A stretch of 63,560 bases of DNA, counting the filler. It is 4 parts of 4 records of this genome, joined end to end, with 100 filler letters (N's around TTAATTAATTAA, not from the genome) between each part and the next. Parts side by side here need not be neighbours in the genome. Positions count along the whole stretch, not along the records: positions 27,240 to 56,924 come from SRR31156797_4496; 3 more parts are not named here. One strand, given 5' to 3'. Positions 17,546 through 57,024 of the stretch are shown in pieces; position 1 is the stretch's first letter; every line of letters starts with the position of its first letter. The translations under genes and the position numbers were made by a program. The notes beneath the pieces are model-generated. The model was not told the origin of the DNA and searched no databases. It worked only from the letters and a program-made list of their open reading frames with translations.

Positions 17546-17645
17546 NNNNNNNNNNNNNNNNNNNNNNNNNNNNNNNNNNNNNNNNNNNNTTAATTAATTA
17601 ANNNNNNNNNNNNNNNNNNNNNNNNNNNNNNNNNNNNNNNNNNNN
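17546..17645. other. Artificial contig spacer (N-run with TTAATTAATTAA)
   Basis: 44 N + TTAATTAATTAA (stop in all frames) + 44 N; identical at three places. Confidence 0.99.
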
Positions 17646-27139: not shown

Positions 27140-27239
27140 NNNNNNNNNNNNNNNNNNNNNNNNNNNNNNNNNNNNNNNNNNNNTTAATTAATTAANNNNN
27201 NNNNNNNNNNNNNNNNNNNNNNNNNNNNNNNNNNNNNNN
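27140..27239. other. Artificial contig spacer
   Basis: N-run with TTAATTAATTAA; marks the switch from Bacteroidota-like to Campylobacterota-like sequence. Confidence 0.99.
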
Positions 27240-27641
27240 TGTCGCAGATAGAAAAGCTCCATTTTCTGGCACTGCTATAGTACCTTCTTGCTTTGTAGCT
27301 TCTAATGTAGTCGTTTCATTCGAAGGAGAAGTATTATATCTATGTTGATGAGTATGCTCTGGTAATTCATATATTGATAAGTGTGTATATTCAGAAAAAT
27401 ATCTATCACCTAAAAATTGCCTTGTAAGACCAGGACCTTGTCCCATACTTATTGCTGTTGAGCCTCTTAAATCCGGTAATGCAAAAACAGTTCTTCCATC
27501 TCCACCATAATAATCATATAATAATGAGAATAAAGCTTGATATTCGTTGACATAAACTAATGCCCCTCCACAATACCCATTATTTTCTGCTGTATAATTA
27601 AATCCTACTGGTATTATTTCACCCATATATTGATCATACAT
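27240..27641 (-). CDS. Tail-collar domain protein (MdpB / 'microcystin-dependent protein' family), truncated
   Basis: YMGEI...F......C.G......YQALFSLL...YGGDGRTVFALPDLRG......GQGPGLT...G....E...LS..ELP.HTH signature. Confidence 0.88.
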
Positions 27642-28569
27642 ATTGTTCCTTTATATTTGTAAACTTCTCTCCACTAAAAAGATTTGCATAGTTTGAATAA
27701 CTATACCCACTGAATATTCCATCAAATGAAGATATAATATCCATTCTTACTGCACCATCTTTAGTAGAAACAACTAATCCCTCTATCTTGTCTATCAATA
27801 CTATTGTTCCCTCCTTTACACCATAGGTTTGATACTCTATTGGTGTTGCTTCTAAAATTTTTATAACTCTATTGCTAATAGTTGTTTCAACTCCTCCATA
27901 TGCTGGATTTGATGCTTTTACTTTTTGTGAAATCTCATATGCTGAATCTTGTTGCCAATCAATTTGAAAGTCAGATGTTTGTGGTTGTTGGAAATATGTA
28001 AAATCTTTTTGCTCCTTATGTTCTATACTGTTTGATTCTATTGCCTCTAAAAACCCTATTATTATATTAGGAACAATTGATGCAACTTTATTACTTAAAG
28101 AACCCATTGTTGCTTCTTTTTCGATCATAAATTCAACACTATAAACAATATCTCCACCATCAATCTCTTCTGTCACTCTGTGAATACTAATGGCACTTTT
28201 TGTTTCACCGTTTCTGATCTGCCAATACAAAGGACTTGATCCTCGATATTTAGGTAAAGGTGAGGGATGTATATTAAAAAAGCCATCTTTAAAGATAGAG
28301 GTCATTTTTTTAGAAAATATTTTAGGATAGGAAAAAGATAAAGCGATATCTGCATTTAAAGCTCTTAAAATATCAAGAAATTCCTCTTTCTCATCATCTG
28401 GTTCTAGATATATTTTTATACCATGCTGCTGAATAAACTGTATCATCTGATGAAATTGGGGATGAGTATTATCCCTAATGACAATAGCTAATAAGTTTTT
28501 ATTTTCAATTAAAACACCAATCAAACTCCATGATATTTGAGAAGAGGTAAAAAGGATCACTTTTTTCAT
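27634..28569 (-). CDS. Fmt-family (10-formyl-THF) formyltransferase, non-housekeeping
   Basis: FFNIHPSPLPKYRGSSP, HRVTEEIDGGDI (Asn/His/Asp catalytic set) and an Fmt-like C-domain (IDW...SNP). Lacks the FMGTP N-terminus of tRNA Fmt. Confidence 0.8.
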   Translation of the reverse strand: MKKVILFTSSQISWSLIGVLIENKNLLAIVIRDNTHPQFHQMIQFIQQHGIKIYLEPDDEKEEFLDILRALNADIALSFSYPKIFSKKMTSIFKDGFFNIHPSPLPKYRGSSPLYWQIRNGETKSAISIHRVTEEIDGGDIVYSVEFMIEKEATMGSLSNKVASIVPNIIIGFLEAIESNSIEHKEQKDFTYFQQPQTSDFQIDWQQDSAYEISQKVKASNPAYGGVETTISNRVIKILEATPIEYQTYGVKEGTIVLIDKIEGLVVSTKDGAVRMDIISSFDGIFSGYSYSNYANLFSGEKFTNIKEQYV

Positions 28570-29825
28570 TGGTTAAATTCTTTCTTTTTAAAAGGGATAA
28601 AAGATGGTAGTCCATCTAGTCTATAATAAAAAGTAACTACATCTCCACTCTTTACAAGAAGATCATCCTCTTCCATTTGTAAAGGTTTATAATTTAAACA
28701 AAAATTCACCATTGGGTATGGATGAGAAATTCCTGAATCATATTCCCCTACTCTTTCACCTTTATAGATATCTACATATGCACTAAAAAGAAGATACTGT
28801 TTAGCATATTCCCCTATAGGTACTGGCATTTTCAAAGTTGCGCACTCTATAAGATTTACATTAGGATCAGAAGATGGAACCTCTTTTAAATTTCGAATAT
28901 TATCTTGGGTAATAGTTAAAATATCTCCTAGTTCCGTCCTTTGTTTTAATATCTCTTCATCTCTTAAAATCTCTCGACAACTTTTTACATCTCTCCATTG
29001 TTCCACATATTCATCTTGAGGTTTATTTAAAAAAGCTTTTACTGTTACTTTTTGCGGTAAAAATATTCCATCTTTTTCTAAAAACTGGGAAAAGTGTTTT
29101 GTAAGTAAGAAGTGCCCTTCTTTTGTAAACCCATGATTTAAAGCTTCAAGCACTACCATATGAATTCTTTGAGCTTCTTTTGGATAGTAATCCAAAGCAT
29201 CCATCTCAAAAATTTCTTCTATATAATCCTCTATTCCTAAGTTTTGAATCAAAGCTTGTAGAGTCGCTGTAGCTCCTTTTTGTATATCTATAAGAGTTAC
29301 TTTTAAACTATTTTTATAGAGGTTCTCCATCTCATATTTTTTTATAAGAGGTAAAAGCAATGGGGCAAATGGTCCACAGGCTGGATAAATAATGTGTATC
29401 TCTTCATTAGGAAATTTACATATAATATCATCTAATGCAAAATGGGCACTTCTTATATAAGCTCTTACTCTTAAACTATCTTTTATCGTATGGATACAAT
29501 GTTCGGGAGCTATTATATTTCCACCTTTTGAGATAAATCTTCTTTTTTTTAGATCAGGATCCATATCTAAAGAATCAAAAATCTCTTTTTGCAACTCAAA
29601 AGCTCTCTCAAGATATCTGTTCAGTTCATCAATATCTTCATTAGTATCATCGATAATAATATCCATTGTTTGCTTGATAACTTGATCTAGGGATAAACTT
29701 AGATCAAAATCCTTGGCTTCCTCTTCTAAAGGTTTTATTTTAGGATATCCTCTTCCATGTTCCAGACTTCTATCTATCACATTTTGAAACTCTCTTGAAA
29801 ACTCTTTTGTAGCCTGATTATTCAT
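28566..29825 (-). CDS. PRMT-like SAM-dependent methyltransferase
   Basis: IIYPACGPFA (motif I-like), VTLIDI (post-I), MVVLEALNHGFTKE (E-x8-E), FLEKDGIFLP (motif III-like); paralog of 30130-31659. Confidence 0.6.
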   Translation of the reverse strand: MNNQATKEFSREFQNVIDRSLEHGRGYPKIKPLEEEAKDFDLSLSLDQVIKQTMDIIIDDTNEDIDELNRYLERAFELQKEIFDSLDMDPDLKKRRFISKGGNIIAPEHCIHTIKDSLRVRAYIRSAHFALDDIICKFPNEEIHIIYPACGPFAPLLLPLIKKYEMENLYKNSLKVTLIDIQKGATATLQALIQNLGIEDYIEEIFEMDALDYYPKEAQRIHMVVLEALNHGFTKEGHFLLTKHFSQFLEKDGIFLPQKVTVKAFLNKPQDEYVEQWRDVKSCREILRDEEILKQRTELGDILTITQDNIRNLKEVPSSDPNVNLIECATLKMPVPIGEYAKQYLLFSAYVDIYKGERVGEYDSGISHPYPMVNFCLNYKPLQMEEDDLLVKSGDVVTFYYRLDGLPSFIPFKKKEFNQ

Positions 29826-29840
29826 TTTTACTTTCCTTTT

Positions 29841-30119
29841 TTATACTAATGGTCTAATGACTTTTGTTGGTGTTACTTCTTGTAACTCCGTAGCCATTGA
29901 ATTATTAATTTGTTGTATTTTTTTTGGAGTCTTTTTTATCTCTTTCATTTTTGAGTTATCTTTATATGTTGTAACTTCATCAACACTATCAAGTAACATC
30001 TCGATCTCTTTTGAAATATTTTTTACTAAAATACTATTATCAACCGATTGTGCTACATTTAATATCCCTTTTATTCCAGCAGACATTACTTCAAAAGTTT
30101 TTTTATCTATATAACTCAT
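29841..30119 (-). CDS. Small hypothetical protein (92 aa)
   Basis: ATG with AAGGGA RBS; fills the gap between the two methyltransferases in the same orientation. Confidence 0.65.
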   Translation of the reverse strand: MSYIDKKTFEVMSAGIKGILNVAQSVDNSILVKNISKEIEMLLDSVDEVTTYKDNSKMKEIKKTPKKIQQINNSMATELQEVTPTKVIRPLV

Positions 30120-30129
30120 ATGATCCCTT

Positions 30130-31659
30130 TTACTCTCTTAGCCAGCTTTTCATCATTGGAAAACTATCTATTTGTAGTTTATCTGCACTTTTTTTTGTAA
30201 GTGTTAACCCCATCCATTCCAAAAGTGGAACACCCATCTCTCCACCATTTTCAAAATGTTCTATCAGCCATTTAGAATCACCTTTATATCCATCACTATG
30301 AAAAACTATGCTAGGATCAATCTCAAGATACTTTAAAGCAGCATAACTCCAAGCTAAGGTAGCCAGTTCATCTCCAGCATTTTTACTTACATCGTTGTAA
30401 ACCTCTTTTCTCTTTTTTGATGTAAAGGTTGCTATATGTCCTGCCTCATGTAAAAGATCTCCTGGGGCTAAAAATTTTTCATTATCAATAACTAATACCC
30501 CTTTATCAATCAAGATTCCTGGTAAAAAACTTGCTTCATGTATACTTTGATGTTTTACTTCGATCCCTATCTCTTCTAGAAAACCAAACATTTTAGCTAC
30601 GATTTTTGGATCGATTTCTTGTTTTTTCATAACTCTAGAAGAGATTCTTTTTTGTTTCGATAATTTTTCTCTTTTTTCATGAAATAGATGTTTATAAACT
30701 ATTTCTGGTCTATTTTCAAATATATAACTAAACTCTAATATATCCCCTTTTAATACTGCTGTATTCAAAAACAATTCTCTAGGACTATTTAAAGTAGACT
30801 CATTTTCTACTAAGATATTCTTCTTATATATTTCTATTGTCGTTGTAAAATATAAACAATCTTCATCCTCTATCTCTTTATCTACAATGATTTTAGGAGT
30901 AATGATAATATTCTCTTTAAACCAGTTTTTTTTCGTATCTAACTTTATAATATCTGATATATGATCTTTAGATTTAATAAGCTGTTTTTCTTGAGTATTT
31001 TTCTTTTTTCCAGATTCCAAGGCCACTGTGACACACTGAGGTATAAACACTCCATTTTGACAAAGTTGTGGTAATAAATTAAGAGTAATATTCACTTGTG
31101 GTTCACCCTCAAATGCTGCTCTCATTGTTTCTGTGATCATTAAATGTACTTTTGAAGTAACTGCAAAAGTTGCAGCATCACAACATTCATAACTTTTAAC
31201 AAAAGAGATTAGTTCTAAACTTTCCACAATAGCTTTTACAGATTCAAGAGAACTTTGATGAATATCTAAAAAAGTTACTTCTATGTTTTTAGGTAAAAAT
31301 AGATGAAGCAAAGGAACCACTAAACTCGCATAAGGACCTGTTCCAGCATAAAGTATATGTATCTTTTCATCATGAACTTTTAATAGATCAATAATAGCTT
31401 CATAAACTCCTCTTAAATATTTAGAAGTCCTTTTATATTCATTGGTACAAACAGCTGCATCTAAAGGAGATAGTGCAACTCCAGAATTTAAATTGGTATG
31501 GATAAACTCTTTTGATTCTAAATGATTCTCTTTAGCTGATATGGTAGATAAACTTCCAAAAAGCTTGGATAATTTATTTACAGCTTTTTCAAGTTCTTCA
31601 TTACAAGAATCTTTATCCAACAATATTGTAACGATTCTATTTAAATCTTGTTTGATCAT
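30130..31659 (-). CDS. PRMT-like SAM methyltransferase fused to a C-terminal HExxH metallopeptidase-like domain
   Basis: ILYAGTGPYA, VTFLDI, LMITETMRAAFEGE (E-x8-E), NGVFIP; C-terminal DLLHEAGH...GDE. Confidence 0.65.
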   Translation of the reverse strand: MIKQDLNRIVTILLDKDSCNEELEKAVNKLSKLFGSLSTISAKENHLESKEFIHTNLNSGVALSPLDAAVCTNEYKRTSKYLRGVYEAIIDLLKVHDEKIHILYAGTGPYASLVVPLLHLFLPKNIEVTFLDIHQSSLESVKAIVESLELISFVKSYECCDAATFAVTSKVHLMITETMRAAFEGEPQVNITLNLLPQLCQNGVFIPQCVTVALESGKKKNTQEKQLIKSKDHISDIIKLDTKKNWFKENIIITPKIIVDKEIEDEDCLYFTTTIEIYKKNILVENESTLNSPRELFLNTAVLKGDILEFSYIFENRPEIVYKHLFHEKREKLSKQKRISSRVMKKQEIDPKIVAKMFGFLEEIGIEVKHQSIHEASFLPGILIDKGVLVIDNEKFLAPGDLLHEAGHIATFTSKKRKEVYNDVSKNAGDELATLAWSYAALKYLEIDPSIVFHSDGYKGDSKWLIEHFENGGEMGVPLLEWMGLTLTKKSADKLQIDSFPMMKSWLRE

Positions 31660-31664
31660 CTTTA

Positions 31665-31988
31665 TTATCCATCCAATAGTTGCTTTTGTATCTGATTCAA
31701 CTCATCAAGCAAGGCTTTAGAATCACTTCCTGAACTTATCTTTTTTTGTAAACTTTCTAATTGGTTAAGCAATTGCAATTTATTTTGCATATTTTGCTGC
31801 TCTAGTTTCATATTGTTTTTGTGAGCTCTTTTTAGATGAATAGGTTCTAAGAAAAGGAAAAAACTTTTTTTCTCCTCTTGATAGTTTTTAATATTTTCAA
31901 CCACATCATTTGGTACTTTTAAGCCATTGCCCAAAGCATATTTTAACATCGCTTTTGCTTCTAAAAAAATGATCTCATTGACAAGCAT
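31665..31988 (-). CDS. Hypothetical protein, first gene of the methyltransferase operon
   Basis: ATG at 31988 with AAGGG RBS; coiled-coil C-half; 5-nt gap to next gene. Confidence 0.55.
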   Translation of the reverse strand: MLVNEIIFLEAKAMLKYALGNGLKVPNDVVENIKNYQEEKKSFFLFLEPIHLKRAHKNNMKLEQQNMQNKLQLLNQLESLQKKISSGSDSKALLDELNQIQKQLLDG

Positions 31989-32026
31989 AATAACCCTTTT
32001 AATTTTCAACTTTGTTGTAAATAAAT

Positions 32027-32061
32027 ATCATATCAAAAAAGTGTCACAGAAATCCGTCACA
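32027..32061 (-). promoter_or_regulatory. Extended -10 (TGATATGAT) with upstream direct repeat TGTGAC-N7-TGTGAC
   Basis: Read directly on the minus strand upstream of 31988. Confidence 0.45.
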
Positions 32062-32192
32062 AAAAATTTTTTTTAAAATTTAAGAGAATAATGAGAAATT
32101 AGTATATAAGTTTAAGTTATTTATAAAGATATCGATTATTGTATGAATGTAATTAGATAAAATGTAGTAAAAGGTTAAAAGGGATATGAAGC

Positions 32193-32537
32193 TTAAAAAA
32201 GCTCCTTATACTCCTCTTCATTAAAACCAACATGAAGTTTCTCTTCCCCATTGAGTCCATGTTCGATAATTGGTCTTTTTAAGATAGAGTTATCTTCCCA
32301 TAGTTTTTTTAACTGTGTTTTTTTAGAAAGATCTTTCCCTTTTAGTTCATGTTCTTTATATGCTTTACTTCTTGTATTAAAAAGCTTTTCTGGTTCTACA
32401 AAATTTAACCAATACTCAATATGCTCTTTTGGGATATTGTTATCGATTTTGATAAACTCATATTCAATATTATTGTTATTGAAAAACTCTAAGGCTTTTT
32501 TACAACTTGCACAAGTTTTGATTCCATAAACTTTCAT
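32193..32537 (-). CDS. ArsC/Spx/YffB-family thiol reductase
   Basis: MKVYGIKTCASCKKA CxxC, LFNTRS, ILKRPII, VGFNEEEY. Confidence 0.85.
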   Translation of the reverse strand: MKVYGIKTCASCKKALEFFNNNNIEYEFIKIDNNIPKEHIEYWLNFVEPEKLFNTRSKAYKEHELKGKDLSKKTQLKKLWEDNSILKRPIIEHGLNGEEKLHVGFNEEEYKELF

Positions 32538-32560
32538 TTTTATTCTCCATTGTTTTTATA

Positions 32561-32592
32561 AGTGTACTCAAATTTGATTACACTTAGATTAC
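32561..32592 (-). promoter_or_regulatory. Direct-repeat box + -10 upstream of ArsC-family gene
   Basis: Minus strand: GTAATC-taagt-GTAATC-N9-TACACT. Confidence 0.7.
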
Positions 32593-32598
32593 TAAAAT

Positions 32599-34089
32599 TT
32601 ATATTTTAAGTTGAGTAATTGCATCATTGGCAACTTGAATTAAATTATCAGCTCCTGGTAAAAACTCTACTAACCCAGTTCCTATTCCACCCCATATTGT
32701 CATCAATGCCATTAAAGCGATACAGATACTGCTTATAGTGATAGGAAAGTTTTTCTTTTCACTTTTTGGTGGATAAAAATACATCAATGCAATTAATTTA
32801 AAATAATAATATATTGATACAAATGCTATAAACACACCAAAACCTGCTAAAAACACCTGCCCTGATTCAATAGCACTAATAAAGATATAAAACTTCCCTA
32901 AGAATCCTATCGTTGAAGGAAATCCTGCCAAAGAAAGCATAAAAATACTCATCATTGCTGCCATATAAGGACGCTCATGAGCAAACCCTTTAAAGTGCTC
33001 AAAAGTGAGTCTTTTTTGTGTATCGCTTGCTATAAAGCTTAAAATTCCAAAAGCTCCAACTGCACTTAAAAAATATGCTATAAGATAAAATACAATAGCT
33101 GAAGAGGCAAACTCTGCTCCAACAGAGATTGAACTAAGTGCAATCAACAAATACCCACCATGAACGATACTAGATCCTGCTAACATTCTTTTTAGATTTG
33201 TTTGAGATATTGCTAAAAATGATCCACCAATAAGAGTTAAAAATGCAATTACATATAAAATAGTAGAAAAAATATGATACATCGGTGCAAAGTCTACTAA
33301 AAATAGTCGTAAAAGTAGAGCAAATACTGCTATTTTAAAAGTCGCTGCCATAAACATAGTCACTGGAAATGGTGCTCCATGATATACATCTACTACCCAA
33401 GAATGAAAAGGAACTGCTCCAATTTTAAAAAGAATCATCACAAGGATAAAAAGTAATCCTACAGCAACTAAAAGATTTACTTCACTACTTCCACTAATAA
33501 ACTGATAAATATCTCCTAGATAAGTTGATCCAACTGCACCATAAATAAGAGCTGATCCAAAGATGAAAAATGCTCCAGTTAAAGCTCCTAGTACGATATA
33601 TTTTAACATCGCTTCAGAACTTTTGGTATTTGTTTTATTATATCCTACTAAGATATATACAGCGATTGAAGCTACCTCTAAAGAGATAAATGCAGTGATC
33701 AACTCATTGGCATGGGCTAACATCATCATCCCAAATACACTAAAAAGTAAAAGTGAGAAAAACTCCCCATTGTAATAGTTTCTACTTTTAAAATAGTGAC
33801 TATTGATAAGCAGTGTAAACATCGCTCCACTTAAAAATAAGATGTCAAAAAGTATAGAGAACTGGTCAATAATAAACATCTGTCCAAAAATATCAGGAAA
33901 TAGATATCCCACTTGTACCCCATCAAAAAGTGAAAACTGTACTACAATAGCTAAAAATAAAAAGAGTACTGCCATTAAACTATAGTTTTTAATCGCTATT
34001 TTTGGGATAAAACTTACAAGCATTAGAATTAATGCCCCTATTGCTATGATCGTTGGAGCAAAGGCAAACTCAAGTCCATAACTTATCAT
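32599..34089 (-). CDS. nuoN: NADH-quinone oxidoreductase subunit N
   Basis: SLEVAS, SSEAMLKY, FKIGAVPFHSWVVDVY, LKRMLAGSS, LSLAGFP; last gene of the nuo operon. Confidence 0.93.
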   Translation of the reverse strand: MISYGLEFAFAPTIIAIGALILMLVSFIPKIAIKNYSLMAVLFLFLAIVVQFSLFDGVQVGYLFPDIFGQMFIIDQFSILFDILFLSGAMFTLLINSHYFKSRNYYNGEFFSLLLFSVFGMMMLAHANELITAFISLEVASIAVYILVGYNKTNTKSSEAMLKYIVLGALTGAFFIFGSALIYGAVGSTYLGDIYQFISGSSEVNLLVAVGLLFILVMILFKIGAVPFHSWVVDVYHGAPFPVTMFMAATFKIAVFALLLRLFLVDFAPMYHIFSTILYVIAFLTLIGGSFLAISQTNLKRMLAGSSIVHGGYLLIALSSISVGAEFASSAIVFYLIAYFLSAVGAFGILSFIASDTQKRLTFEHFKGFAHERPYMAAMMSIFMLSLAGFPSTIGFLGKFYIFISAIESGQVFLAGFGVFIAFVSIYYYFKLIALMYFYPPKSEKKNFPITISSICIALMALMTIWGGIGTGLVEFLPGADNLIQVANDAITQLKI

Positions 34090-49598: not shown

Positions 49599-51350
49599 AT
49601 GCAAAAAAATATTTTTTTATTTTTATTATTTCTTCATACAACTCTTTTTTCTTCAAATGTAGATCTAAAAAACAATACACTTATTAATCAATCCGCTTAT
49701 ATAAACTCACAATGTTATACAAAAACAGAAGATTCAATAGATAAAAACCTTTTACACAATCCATGCTATAGCTGCCATACTAAAAATAAAGAACCAAATT
49801 TTTCTTTTGGAGATGATGATCTCCAGAGTGCCTATGATTTTCCCTATCCAGCTTTAAAAAACCCTTGGACAAACCTTTTTAAAGATAGAACACAAGAGGT
49901 TTCACAAATAACTGATACTGAAATATTACATTATATAAATCAAAACAACTATATACAAAACAATCAAATAATTTTAAAAAATAAACTTACTACTCTTCCA
50001 TCTTCATGGGATCATAATGAGAATGGAAAATGGGATGGATATATCCCAGATTGTTACTTTAATTTTGATAATGAGGGATTTGATAAAGATCCAAATAATA
50101 TCTACACAGGATGGAGATCATTTGCTTATAGACCATTTTTAGGAACCTTTTGGCCTACCAATGGAAGTACAGATGATGTGATCATACGACTTGATAAGGT
50201 TTTTATGCAAAATGAAAAAGGGGAATTTGATCTTGATATTTATAAACTCAATCTTTTAATTGTAGAATCACTTATTAAACAAGCTGATATAGATATTGAT
50301 CCAAGGGATGAAAAAAAATATGGCTATGATATGGATCAAAATGGAAAACTTAATATTGCAAACAAAATAGTTTTTAAATGGAAACAGCCTACCTATAATC
50401 AAGAGACTTTTAAGATCTCTGGCTTTTCAATGACCTATGTGGGAAAAGCAAAAACACTTCTAGAACAAAACAAAGTTTTAATAGCTCCTGGTCTTTATCC
50501 AGTGGGAACAGAATTTTTACACTCTGTAAGATATATAGGAGTTGATAAAAACAATGAAATAGTGATGGCTCCAAGAATGAAAGAGCTTCGATATGGGAAA
50601 AAAATGGCATGGAAAACCTATTATGAGCTTAAAAATAATGGACTTGGAAAACTAAAAGAAAAAGATGATTTTGGAGATAGACTTGATCAGTTTTTAGGAA
50701 ACTCTGAAACAGGTTTATATAATGGACTGGGATGGAGATATCAAGGGTTTATCGAAGACAAACAAGGGGATCTTCGTCCACAAAGTTATGAAGAGACCCA
50801 TTTTTGTATAGGGTGTCATAATAATATAGGGGCTATTGCTGATTCCACTTTTGTATTTCAAAGAAAACTTGGACACGATTCTTTTCAAAAAGGGTGGTAC
50901 CACTGGAGCCAAAAAGGTCTAAAAGGGATCACAGATCGAATGCTAAAAAATGGTGATACAGAATATGTACAATATCTAAAGACTAATAACGCTGGAGATG
51001 AGTTTAGACAAAATCAAGAGGTGATGGAAAAGTTTTTTGTAAAAGGTTGGGAAAAAGATAAAGAGAATATTCAAAAAGATCTTATTGAAAAACTAGAAAA
51101 TCCTGATATTTATCAAAAACAGTATTGGAAACTCAAAAGAGATGAAGTTAAAAAACTTCAAAAAGATATATCACATTTGATCCTACCAAGTCCTAAAAGA
51201 GCAATAGAATTGAATAAAGCTTATAAAGTGATCGTAGATGAACAAAGTTATATCTATGGACGTGAACCTCATATAAAACCTCTAACAAATGTCCATAAAG
51301 AGGTAAAAGATGGACAAATGACACAACTACAAAAAGTGTATAACGAATAA
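49599..51350 (+). CDS. Exported hypothetical protein with two CxxCH heme-binding motifs
   Basis: Signal peptide; CYSCH and CIGCH. Confidence 0.65.
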   Translation: MQKNIFLFLLFLHTTLFSSNVDLKNNTLINQSAYINSQCYTKTEDSIDKNLLHNPCYSCHTKNKEPNFSFGDDDLQSAYDFPYPALKNPWTNLFKDRTQEVSQITDTEILHYINQNNYIQNNQIILKNKLTTLPSSWDHNENGKWDGYIPDCYFNFDNEGFDKDPNNIYTGWRSFAYRPFLGTFWPTNGSTDDVIIRLDKVFMQNEKGEFDLDIYKLNLLIVESLIKQADIDIDPRDEKKYGYDMDQNGKLNIANKIVFKWKQPTYNQETFKISGFSMTYVGKAKTLLEQNKVLIAPGLYPVGTEFLHSVRYIGVDKNNEIVMAPRMKELRYGKKMAWKTYYELKNNGLGKLKEKDDFGDRLDQFLGNSETGLYNGLGWRYQGFIEDKQGDLRPQSYEETHFCIGCHNNIGAIADSTFVFQRKLGHDSFQKGWYHWSQKGLKGITDRMLKNGDTEYVQYLKTNNAGDEFRQNQEVMEKFFVKGWEKDKENIQKDLIEKLENPDIYQKQYWKLKRDEVKKLQKDISHLILPSPKRAIELNKAYKVIVDEQSYIYGREPHIKPLTNVHKEVKDGQMTQLQKVYNE

Positions 51351-56924: not shown

Positions 56925-57024
56925 NNNNNNNNNNNNNNNNNNNNNNNNNNNNNNNNNNNNNNNNNNNNTTAATTAATTAANNNNNNNNNNNNNNNNNNNN
57001 NNNNNNNNNNNNNNNNNNNNNNNN
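56925..57024. other. Artificial contig spacer
   Basis: N-run with TTAATTAATTAA. Confidence 0.99.

Follow-up and report, generated by a model that had tools for sequence, protein, structure and literature searches.

A six-gene operon in the stretch of DNA analysed here (63,560 nucleotides (nt); hereafter the window) encodes two methyltransferases that resemble protein arginine methyltransferases (PRMTs), the first of which carries a C-terminal HExxH domain, together with an Fmt/ArnA-like formyltransferase and a small tail-collar protein. Judged from its sequence, the operon is best classified as a new and rare variant of a predicted collar-tailoring cassette, in which methylation would be combined with formylation and the HExxH domain, here called the hub, is fused to a PRMT-like enzyme; the hydroxylase/sulfotransferase pair that is dominant elsewhere is lacking from the window set. 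The explanation that in our opinion accounts best for the whole, and which we hold to be somewhat more plausible than its negation, is that the enzymes of this rare variant modify collar proteins, with the hub gripping the collar.

The window consists of four contigs joined end to end by N-spacers, and the operon occupies the low-coordinate end of contig three (27240–56924). Its six co-directional, tightly packed open reading frames (ORFs) extend on the minus strand from 32009 down to the junction at 27240, which cuts the last gene, in the order 107/114 amino acids (aa), 509 aa, 92 aa, 419 aa, 311 aa and collar. The first three intergenic gaps measure 5, 10 and 15 nt in this order, and the last two gene pairs overlap by 4 and 8 nt, the Fmt-like gene overlapping the collar gene. 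An earlier description made from the letters alone (the sequence-only reading) had listed six packed minus-strand ORFs ending at a contig end and had identified them as coding for two PRMT-like proteins, an HExxH domain, an Fmt-like enzyme and an MdpB-type collar protein; the ORF coordinates and the N-spacer at 27140–27239 confirmed the former, and folds, motifs and Pfam matches bore out the latter. The features are as follows.

32022–32061, minus strand: candidate promoter region, with a −10-like string and two TGTGAC repeats in the AT-rich gap after the ArsC/Spx gene
31665–31988, minus strand: 107-aa orphan ORF (114 aa from the TTG at 32009), coiled-coil-like, with an AAGGG ribosome-binding site before its ATG
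31659–30130, minus strand: 509-aa ORF, a PRMT-like module fused to a C-terminal HExxH domain
30655–31659, minus strand: PRMT-like S-adenosylmethionine (SAM) methyltransferase module, residues 1–335 of the 509-aa protein, assigned by alignment A2, model and Foldseek
30133–30627, minus strand: HExxH hub, residues ~345–509 of the 509-aa protein, a zincin-like domain without a family name, onto which the collar tail is predicted to dock
29841–30119, minus strand: 92-aa small protein with a strong ribosome-binding site, between the two methyltransferases
28566–29825, minus strand: the other PRMT-like methyltransferase (419 aa), paralogous to the module above and with all invariant residues of A2
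27634–28569, minus strand: Fmt/ArnA-like formyltransferase, 311 aa (PF00551, E = 2.3e-23; PF02911, E = 1.1e-11)
27240–27641, minus strand: tail-collar protein of the COG4675/MdpB/RhiB type, first 134 residues (PF07484, E = 8e-16, residues 7–62)
27140–27239, no strand: assembly junction, no biology; two runs of 44 N around the TTAATTAATTAA linker

Enzymes and collar protein of the operon

The 509-aa and 419-aa proteins are paralogs, sharing 24% identity (E = 3e-20) over ~330 residues. In an alignment of 17 sequences that includes both of them (A2), motif I reads YAGTGPY with invariant G108-P109, the acidic post-I residue stands in (L/I)(D/E)I, D161-A162 is invariant, and E177 and E186, nine residues apart, are invariant in 17/17 sequences. 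The AlphaFold model of the PRMT-like module had a predicted local distance difference test (pLDDT) value of 88.9, with strands from residue 204 to 325, and all Foldseek rows shown for it were PRMTs (PRMT9, 5, 7, 1, CARM1, PRMT6 and PRMT2; best E = 5e-10), in alignments of 290–360 columns spanning the Rossmann and beta-barrel parts. The chains of PRMT1, CARM1 and PRMT6 (320–350 residues) were covered almost fully, with TMt values of 0.48–0.58. When a profile was compared with PDB sequences by HMMER, Caenorhabditis elegans PRMT7 (3wst) was the best match (E = 0.0055), and E177 and E186 fell on its double-E loop; the two glutamates of this loop hold the guanidinium group. Single-sequence PDB searches with the two large proteins gave nothing useful, and at E ≤ 0.1 neither methyltransferase matched any Pfam or NCBIfam family except a sub-threshold Methyltransf_25. 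Both enzymes are thus supported as PRMT-like by fold and motifs, with arginine methylation as their predicted activity, and we call them PRMT-like instead of filing them as PRMT members because no curated PRMT sequence model matched. They share with eukaryotic PRMT1/5/7/9 and CARM1 the Rossmann and beta-barrel architecture, the SAM-binding motif I and the double-E loop, but differ from them in the low identity (9–14% in the rows shown), in the moderate TM-scores given above and in being encoded in a bacterial operon with a fibre-tip protein.

The hub is a separate C-terminal domain of ~165 aa, and its HEAGH motif lies within a conserved domain. In two alignments of the family, H68-E69-x-x-H72 and E95 were invariant (20/20 sequences in A1, 30/30 in A3), as were PGDLLHEAGH, the position of E95 at 23 residues past the second His, WSYAA, and H118-x2-GY within FH-x2-GYKG; E95 is the putative third metal ligand. 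The hub model reached a pLDDT of 93.1. Ten hub sequences found no Pfam match even at E = 10, no NCBIfam model matched either, and the fold matches were weak: Foldseek E values were 0.11–3, and VIA gave Z scores of 5.6–4.0 and root-mean-square deviations (rmsd) of 3.8–5.1 over 84–120 residues, which is below the reliable level of the tool. The best of these fold matches were nearly all metallopeptidase/zincin or YbeY/EpmC-like HExxH proteins. In the ESM Atlas the hub fell among unnamed clusters, the nearest named one being EpmC at 0.90 with 181 shared features, and superposition on EpmC (4pdn_A) gave a weak likeness (Z 5.1, rmsd 4.1 over 102 residues, model 14–171). None of the ten hub sequences matched the EpmC/YfcM family model (PF04315) at E ≤ 10; a PF04315 search of five hub-carrying genomes also gave nothing, while the Escherichia coli control was detected. 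Kinship of the hub with EpmC is therefore tentative. A search of PDB with the A1 profile matched only the fused enzyme parts (carbamoyltransferases, proline hydroxylase).

The hub thus resembles minimal zincins and YbeY/EpmC-like proteins (selecase, abylysin, the ArdC C-domain, ImmA/IrrE, BepA, YfcM/EpmC) in having HExxH on a helix, an invariant downstream Glu and a small alpha/beta fold, but differs from them in the weakness of the matches (E at least 0.11, Z at most 5.6), in matching no hidden Markov model and in its additional, family-specific invariant WSYAA and FH-x2-GYKG. Model and motifs suggest a zincin-like domain of an unnamed family, which may cleave, hydroxylate or purely bind.

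Among 97 homologs of the 509-aa protein, 70 have the hub and 27 the PRMT-like module alone. In the 70 proteins with a hub, the fusion partner was an Asp/Asn beta-hydroxylase/cupin in 34, a carbamoyltransferase in 13, a GNAT in six, a class I methyltransferase in four, a hexapeptide acetyltransferase in two, and a sulfotransferase, an AlkB-like protein, PhyH, PF05985 or PF02152 in one each; six lacked a Pfam partner, two of them with the PRMT-like module, two with tandem hubs and two unassigned. The tandem cases, P0023 and P0024, are 343-aa proteins made of two hub domains. One hub-carbamoyltransferase fusion (P0097) is labelled as coming from the nematode Ostertagia ostertagi, probably through bacterial contamination of that assembly.

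The 311-aa protein carries an N-I-H...SPLPKYRG motif, which we take to be the catalytic motif of formyltransferases. Its identity as the housekeeping Met-tRNA formyltransferase (TIGR00460) was rejected, the score of 150.6 bits being below the cut-off of 201.5. The collar gene is cut by the contig end, so that the C-terminal ~40–80 residues of its product are missing, and no second piece of it was found elsewhere in the window. The visible part contains HTHQH, an HxH motif that is also present in T4 gp12. In an alignment of 76 collars, the N-terminal collar domain and the HxH motif are followed by a variable middle rich in Ser, Ala, Gly, Thr and Asn and by a conserved C-terminus, and nearly all complete sequences end in the same five residues; in the collar relatives of alignment A4, P181 is invariant and R183 nearly so. 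No group-specific residue was obvious by eye when collars from loci with a PRMT-like gene were compared with those from loci without one.

The tip of the T4 gp12 short tail fibre is the source of the collar domain, but the cassette collars differ from it in lacking a fibre shaft and a phage context, in their length of ~170–220 aa and in occurring as tandem paralogs. They are more like MdpB of Microcystis and RhiB of the Rhizobium rhiABC operon, which are small, non-phage collar-domain proteins without known function; RhiB is listed under COG4675 in the available text of PMC6969944. No such enzyme set is described for the loci of MdpB and RhiB; in the rhi operon, RhiB goes with RhiA, RhiC and quorum-sensing genes.

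Gene neighbourhoods of the hub, the PRMT-like module and the collars

Cassettes of this general kind were predicted in silico by Iyer, Abhiman, de Souza and Aravind in 2010 (NAR 38:5261; PMC2938197). The available text of that paper describes conserved neighbourhoods with tail-collar or collagen-like proteins, beta-hydroxylases, PhyH fused to methyltransferase domains, sulfotransferases, PAPS (3'-phosphoadenosine 5'-phosphosulfate) synthetases, acetyltransferases and AlkB-like proteins, and proposes that the collar or collagen-like proteins are substrates that are hydroxylated and then sulfated. The window type agrees with those operons, as presented there, in that collar proteins are co-encoded with peptide-tailoring enzymes in conserved synteny and in that the same enzyme families are seen around the hub and the PRMT-like module. 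It departs from them in its visible part, where an HExxH hub, a pair of PRMT-like enzymes and an Fmt-like enzyme are encoded but no beta-hydroxylase, PhyH or sulfotransferase is. The main text of PMC2938197 nowhere uses the terms HExxH, zincin, metalloprotease, metallopeptidase or formyltransferase. Neither a beta-hydroxylase nor a sulfotransferase was found among the six ORFs or on the visible contig, and such genes could lie past its end.

For a survey of relatives, the hub was searched in one genome per species, giving at least 579 relatives in many phyla, of which the best 80 loci were used, and the PRMT-like module was searched in metagenomes, giving at least 564 relatives, of which 80 loci were used, 23 of them at least 8 kb long. 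Each of the 80 hub loci has exactly one hub, mostly as a stand-alone ORF of ~165 aa, which frequently adjoins or runs into the gene of a hydroxylase, a carbamoyltransferase, PhyH, a sulfotransferase or a GNAT; because the stand-alone hub is placed next to the same enzymes, the hub fusions can be read as Rosetta-stone links. Collar ORFs occur within 10 kb of the hub in 26/80 loci, usually as two or three tandem paralogs of ~175 aa, and near the PRMT-like module in seven of the 23 metagenome loci of at least 8 kb, a share of about 30% in either case. Clustering of all ORFs gave the recurrent neighbour families (genome loci/metagenome loci): Asp/Asn beta-hydroxylase (33/3), collar (26/8), sulfotransferase (18/2), PhyH (13/2), GNAT (10/6), Fmt-like (8/2), DUF6916 (7/6), APS kinase (8/0) and Peripla_BP_6-like (8/0). 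One further cluster (c17) was dropped as a likely antisense ORF, its representative overlapping a collar gene on the opposite strand; cluster c16 may be a similar case. These gene maps represent one variable cassette with interchangeable enzymes.

The same maps could be read differently: the enzymes would produce or modify a short peptide or small molecule, for example a guanidino compound or an altered amino acid, and the collars and the Peripla_BP_6-like proteins would do no more than bind, present or sense it. Carbamoyl-, sulfo-, acetyl-, formyl- and methyltransferases and PhyH are typical of small-molecule tailoring, bacterial relatives of PRMTs occur in operons for secondary or peptide metabolites according to the available text of a 2012 review by Aravind (PMC3417536), a LivJ-like binding protein stands between the Fmt and collar genes in Bacteroidota loci, and 54/80 hub loci have no collar within 10 kb. 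On the other hand, no exporter recurs among the loci, nor does any gene for building a scaffold, be it a nonribosomal peptide synthetase, a polyketide synthase, an ATP-grasp enzyme or another type; apart from enzymes, only collars, DUF6916 and giant adhesins are found repeatedly, and the hub is predicted to bind the collar through its active-site face (see below). We regard this reading as unlikely, though still the most serious competitor of collar modification.

Several observations tie the collar genes to the enzymes. The Fmt-like cluster was found in 10 loci, with collar genes in 10/10 of them and directly adjacent in seven. When five genomes were searched as a whole with PF07484, all two or three collar genes of four of them (3.7–13.7 Mb) lay inside the hub locus, and those of the fifth lay on another contig, beside a PRMT-like gene; since a 20-kb locus makes up only ~0.15–0.5% of such genomes, the clustering of collar and hub is far beyond chance. 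The 419-aa protein was detected in 1/401 genomes of the phylum, and this genome, which belongs to the same order, is the source of a locus with the same gene order (L081), a 3.5-kb contig on which an AspH gene is followed by PRMT-like (E = 5e-93 to the 419-aa protein), Fmt-like (E = 2e-57) and collar genes, the last one cut. A 21.6-kb metagenome contig (L083) shows PhyH, an AspH-PRMT-like fusion, PRMT-like (E = 2e-87), Fmt-like and a complete collar gene (216 aa), followed by a 1581-aa Big_5/Big_9/cadherin-like protein, a 94-aa ORF and an outer membrane protein beta-barrel, with DnaK/GrpE on one side and type II secretion system/pilin genes on the other. The order PRMT-like, Fmt, collar therefore recurs in two independent loci. 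By analogy, L083 may offer the best available view of what lies past the contig end in the window, and it is not a prophage. The sequence-only reading had proposed a dedicated modification pathway and had named as refuting findings a lack of synteny among homologs or an ordinary prophage tail module downstream. Synteny did recur in L081 and L083, collars are enriched near the hub and the PRMT-like module, and at the downstream position L083, the one relative locus that continues beyond its collar gene, has a giant Ig/cadherin-like surface protein, so that a collar-linked pathway gained support, its chemistry being a prediction.

That the locus is left over from the tail-fibre module of a prophage and its auxiliary genes would be consistent with the phage origin of the collar domain and with the weak matches of the collar to tail proteins in PHROGs (3e-8 and 2e-4). 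However, the ORF list and family searches revealed no capsid, terminase, integrase, other tail or phage gene on the 29.7-kb contig, the sequence-only reading having likewise noted that capsid, terminase and integrase genes are missing nearby, and none of these was present in L083; the other five ORFs had no structural match in PHROGs, and the hub occurred in just one locus, with uninformative neighbours, in the 2.9 million contigs of the IMG/VR collection. The six-gene locus is chromosomal, and we consider a prophage remnant highly improbable.

The two small ORFs do not belong to the recurrent core. No homolog of the 107-aa ORF was found at E ≤ 0.01, no family model scored above its cut-off, and the ORF was not present in L081 or L083. 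Among 1.84 billion representatives, the 92-aa protein had three homologs (82–94 aa, 41–63% identity), with conservation in the helix at the N-terminus and in the tail at the C-terminus and a variable middle; it had no ESM Atlas match, and no relative was encoded in the 163 loci (L001–L163), the syntenic L081 and L083 included. It had earlier been put forward as a possible substrate of a pathway for a ribosomally synthesized and post-translationally modified peptide (RiPP), in which a 92-aa precursor would be methylated, formylated and cut by an HExxH protease. The conserved ends and variable middle, a basic residue near the C-terminus, the small number of relatives, and the position between two methyltransferases behind a strong ribosome-binding site would suit a precursor. 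However, L081 and L083 keep PRMT-like, Fmt and collar genes without this ORF, Pfam and NCBIfam searches of the operon proteins matched no RiPP recognition element and no known RiPP enzyme family, and the hub family mostly stands alone beside hydroxylases and collar genes. The role of the 92-aa ORF as substrate was accordingly not upheld, and a RiPP-like pathway appears very unlikely.

Among the non-enzymatic neighbours, a pair of a small DUF6916 protein and a GNAT stands directly beside collars in L033, L036, L072, L079, L110, L143–L145, L148 and L156, and DUF6916 may be another non-enzymatic partner. In Bacteroidota, a Peripla_BP_6 (LivJ-like) gene lies between or next to Fmt-like and collar genes (L063, L065, L077, L005, L051 and L071).

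Predicted docking of the hub on the collar tail

The pair used for complex prediction was a 184-aa collar and a 169-aa stand-alone hub that are natural neighbours in a Flavobacterium locus (L065). The complex scored 0.73 in three runs versus 0.00, 0.00 and 0.11 for controls, a mark that was reached by 51/78 solved complexes and by 2/108 mismatched pairs; the runs agreed in at least 96% of contacts, and the pLDDT of the partners was at least 86. In the predicted interface, a helix of the collar (residues 36–44) and its last five residues (180–184) meet H60, 87–95 and 117–121 of the hub, which are the first HExxH histidine, the helix of the invariant Glu and the GYKG loop. On the hub side, these are the positions that are invariant in the family, and the domain of the window has them too. 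The prediction supports binding of the hub to the collar via the invariant C-terminal tail. Proteolytic processing by the HExxH domain had been part of the sequence-only reading; in the light of the predicted complex, the domain has the look of a hub that docks on the collar, possibly without cleaving.

From these data we propose the following course of events. The tail-collar proteins, which are small, form trimers and are homologous to the tip with which the short tail fibres of phages bind their receptor, would be encoded with interchangeable tailoring enzymes, which would modify them after translation. In the window, the two PRMT-like enzymes would probably N-methylate arginine or another amine or guanidino group, and the Fmt-like enzyme would N-formylate. 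The metal-binding HExxH domain, fused to the first methyltransferase, would grip the collar via the helix of the collar domain and the invariant C-terminal tail, and would in this way bring enzyme and collar substrate together; it may also trim or modify the tail. The decorated collar protein would most likely act at the cell surface with a giant adhesin. The gene identities, folds, conserved motifs, synteny and co-occurrence described above are observed; the modified residues, the order of the steps and the cellular role are what this scheme would add to them. Taken as a whole, the earlier interpretation held in its gene identities and its collar-linked modification pathway, but not in the proteolysis, the RiPP-like 92-aa substrate and the single promoter.

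A number of points weigh against collar modification guided by the hub. The complex was predicted for the Flavobacterium pair and not for the window proteins, its pass reflects the model's own confidence, and neighbouring genes drawn blind passed the complex test in 7/44 cases; moreover, the conserved C-terminal tail of the window collar lies past the contig end. Besides the 54 hub loci, 16 of the 23 long PRMT-like loci have no collar gene within 10 kb, and neither the hub nor the PRMT-like module is thus strictly tied to collars. The hub is also dispensable for sets of PRMT-like, Fmt and collar genes, since no hub was present in any of 81 PRMT-like loci (L081–L161), including L083, the closest full synteny. 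No signal peptide was seen in the aligned collar sequences, so a surface role of the collars is a guess. Finally, no experimental study of the cassette was found in the literature, in which collar modification is a prediction only; likewise, no functional study was found for MdpB, COG4675, DUF6916 or a tail collar with hydroxylase and sulfotransferase.

The giant cell-surface adhesins could themselves be the substrates, with the collars as accessory tips or chaperones, and this also counts against the collars as targets. Giant surface proteins stand beside collar cassettes in L008, L013, L024, L065, L066, L077, L079, L083, L143 and others. ORFs of at least 1000 aa were present in 15/26 hub loci with collars versus 11/54 without, and a search of 16 giant ORFs against Pfam gave surface types (SprB-repeat/type IX secretion system-sorted, MBG/cadherin-like, Big/RTX and one RHS; two had no match); in L083 the 1581-aa Big_5/Big_9/cadherin protein directly follows the collar. 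The giants are, however, heterogeneous and missing from 11/26 collar loci, Fmt and hub track the collar genes much more tightly, and the complex prediction favours a contact of hub and collar. We therefore think it rather improbable that the adhesins are the substrates, and retain modification of the collars as the preferred explanation.

Expression signals, genomic setting and meaning of the cassette

Regarding expression of the operon, one extended −10 promoter had been claimed earlier. The extended −10-like string TGnTATGAT is indeed present at 32035–32027, 39 nt upstream of the ATG at 31988, as a sequence match only. A consensus promoter scan of 27240–32700 gave 22 sites versus a mean of 28.1 in shuffles; since the scan was not above shuffles, a single promoter is plausible at most. 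No terminator-like sites were found in 27240–32700. Immediately upstream of the −10-like string are two TGTGAC direct repeats (32061–32056 and 32048–32043, their starts 13 nt apart), which could be a regulator site. None of the six operon proteins (0/6) matched a known anti-phage defence system in PADLOC.

On the same strand upstream of the six genes lie an ArsC/Spx-family gene and a complete nuo operon (nuoA–N), and farther along the contig (to 56924) are genes for EAL-GGDEF (cyclic di-GMP), PhoX, PhoH and a methyl-accepting chemotaxis protein. The G+C content is 28–31% in the six-gene stretch versus 32–37% in the nuo genes. A 583-aa ORF at 49599–51347 (plus strand), between PhoX and an acyltransferase gene, matched no Pfam family at E ≤ 1e-5. 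The nearest genome (G001) had no match to the 509-aa protein or PF07484; its contig C35 (L164) begins inside the ArsC/Spx gene, with 97% identity to the window at 32244, and because it breaks right beside the site of the island, absence of the island from this genome is indistinguishable from an assembly gap. The spacers (44 N, the same linker and 44 N) stand at 17546–17645, 27140–27239 and 56925–57024, and as the window is made of contigs joined by them, ORFs that cross a spacer are artefacts (e.g. a '149-aa' ORF at 27192–27641). The end of the second contig (23874–27139) has a G+C content of 37–43% versus ~30% on the contig of the operon, codes for a formiminotransferase-cyclodeaminase, a trypsin-like protein and small proteins with lipoprotein-like leaders, and may come from another organism in the bin.

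Bacteria from soil, from water and from hosts commonly encode collar proteins of the MdpB/RhiB type, to which no function has been assigned in decades; the cassette described here ties them to a large, swappable enzyme toolkit. For one family of collar paralogs, in Solibacter, the available text of PMC3174227 reports a signal of positive selection, which suggests that an arms race acts on surface recognition. If the collars are the substrates, arginine methylation, N-formylation, beta-hydroxylation and sulfation would take place on a structural protein in bacteria, and a docking domain of ~165 aa might find a second use in guiding enzymes to tagged proteins. The predicted contact of hub and tail makes the in-silico prediction of 2010 directly testable with two small proteins. 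A bolder view, which is possible but which we would not expect to hold, is that the cassette writes a modular chemical code on fibre-tip proteins: the hub would read the collar tail and recruit interchangeable enzymes, for arginine methylation and formylation in the window and for hydroxylation, sulfation, carbamoylation and acetylation elsewhere, so as to diversify the recognition surface of trimeric tips beside giant adhesins. If this were true, a defined protein substrate would, with the pair in the window, be known for bacterial methyltransferases of the PRMT type for the first time.

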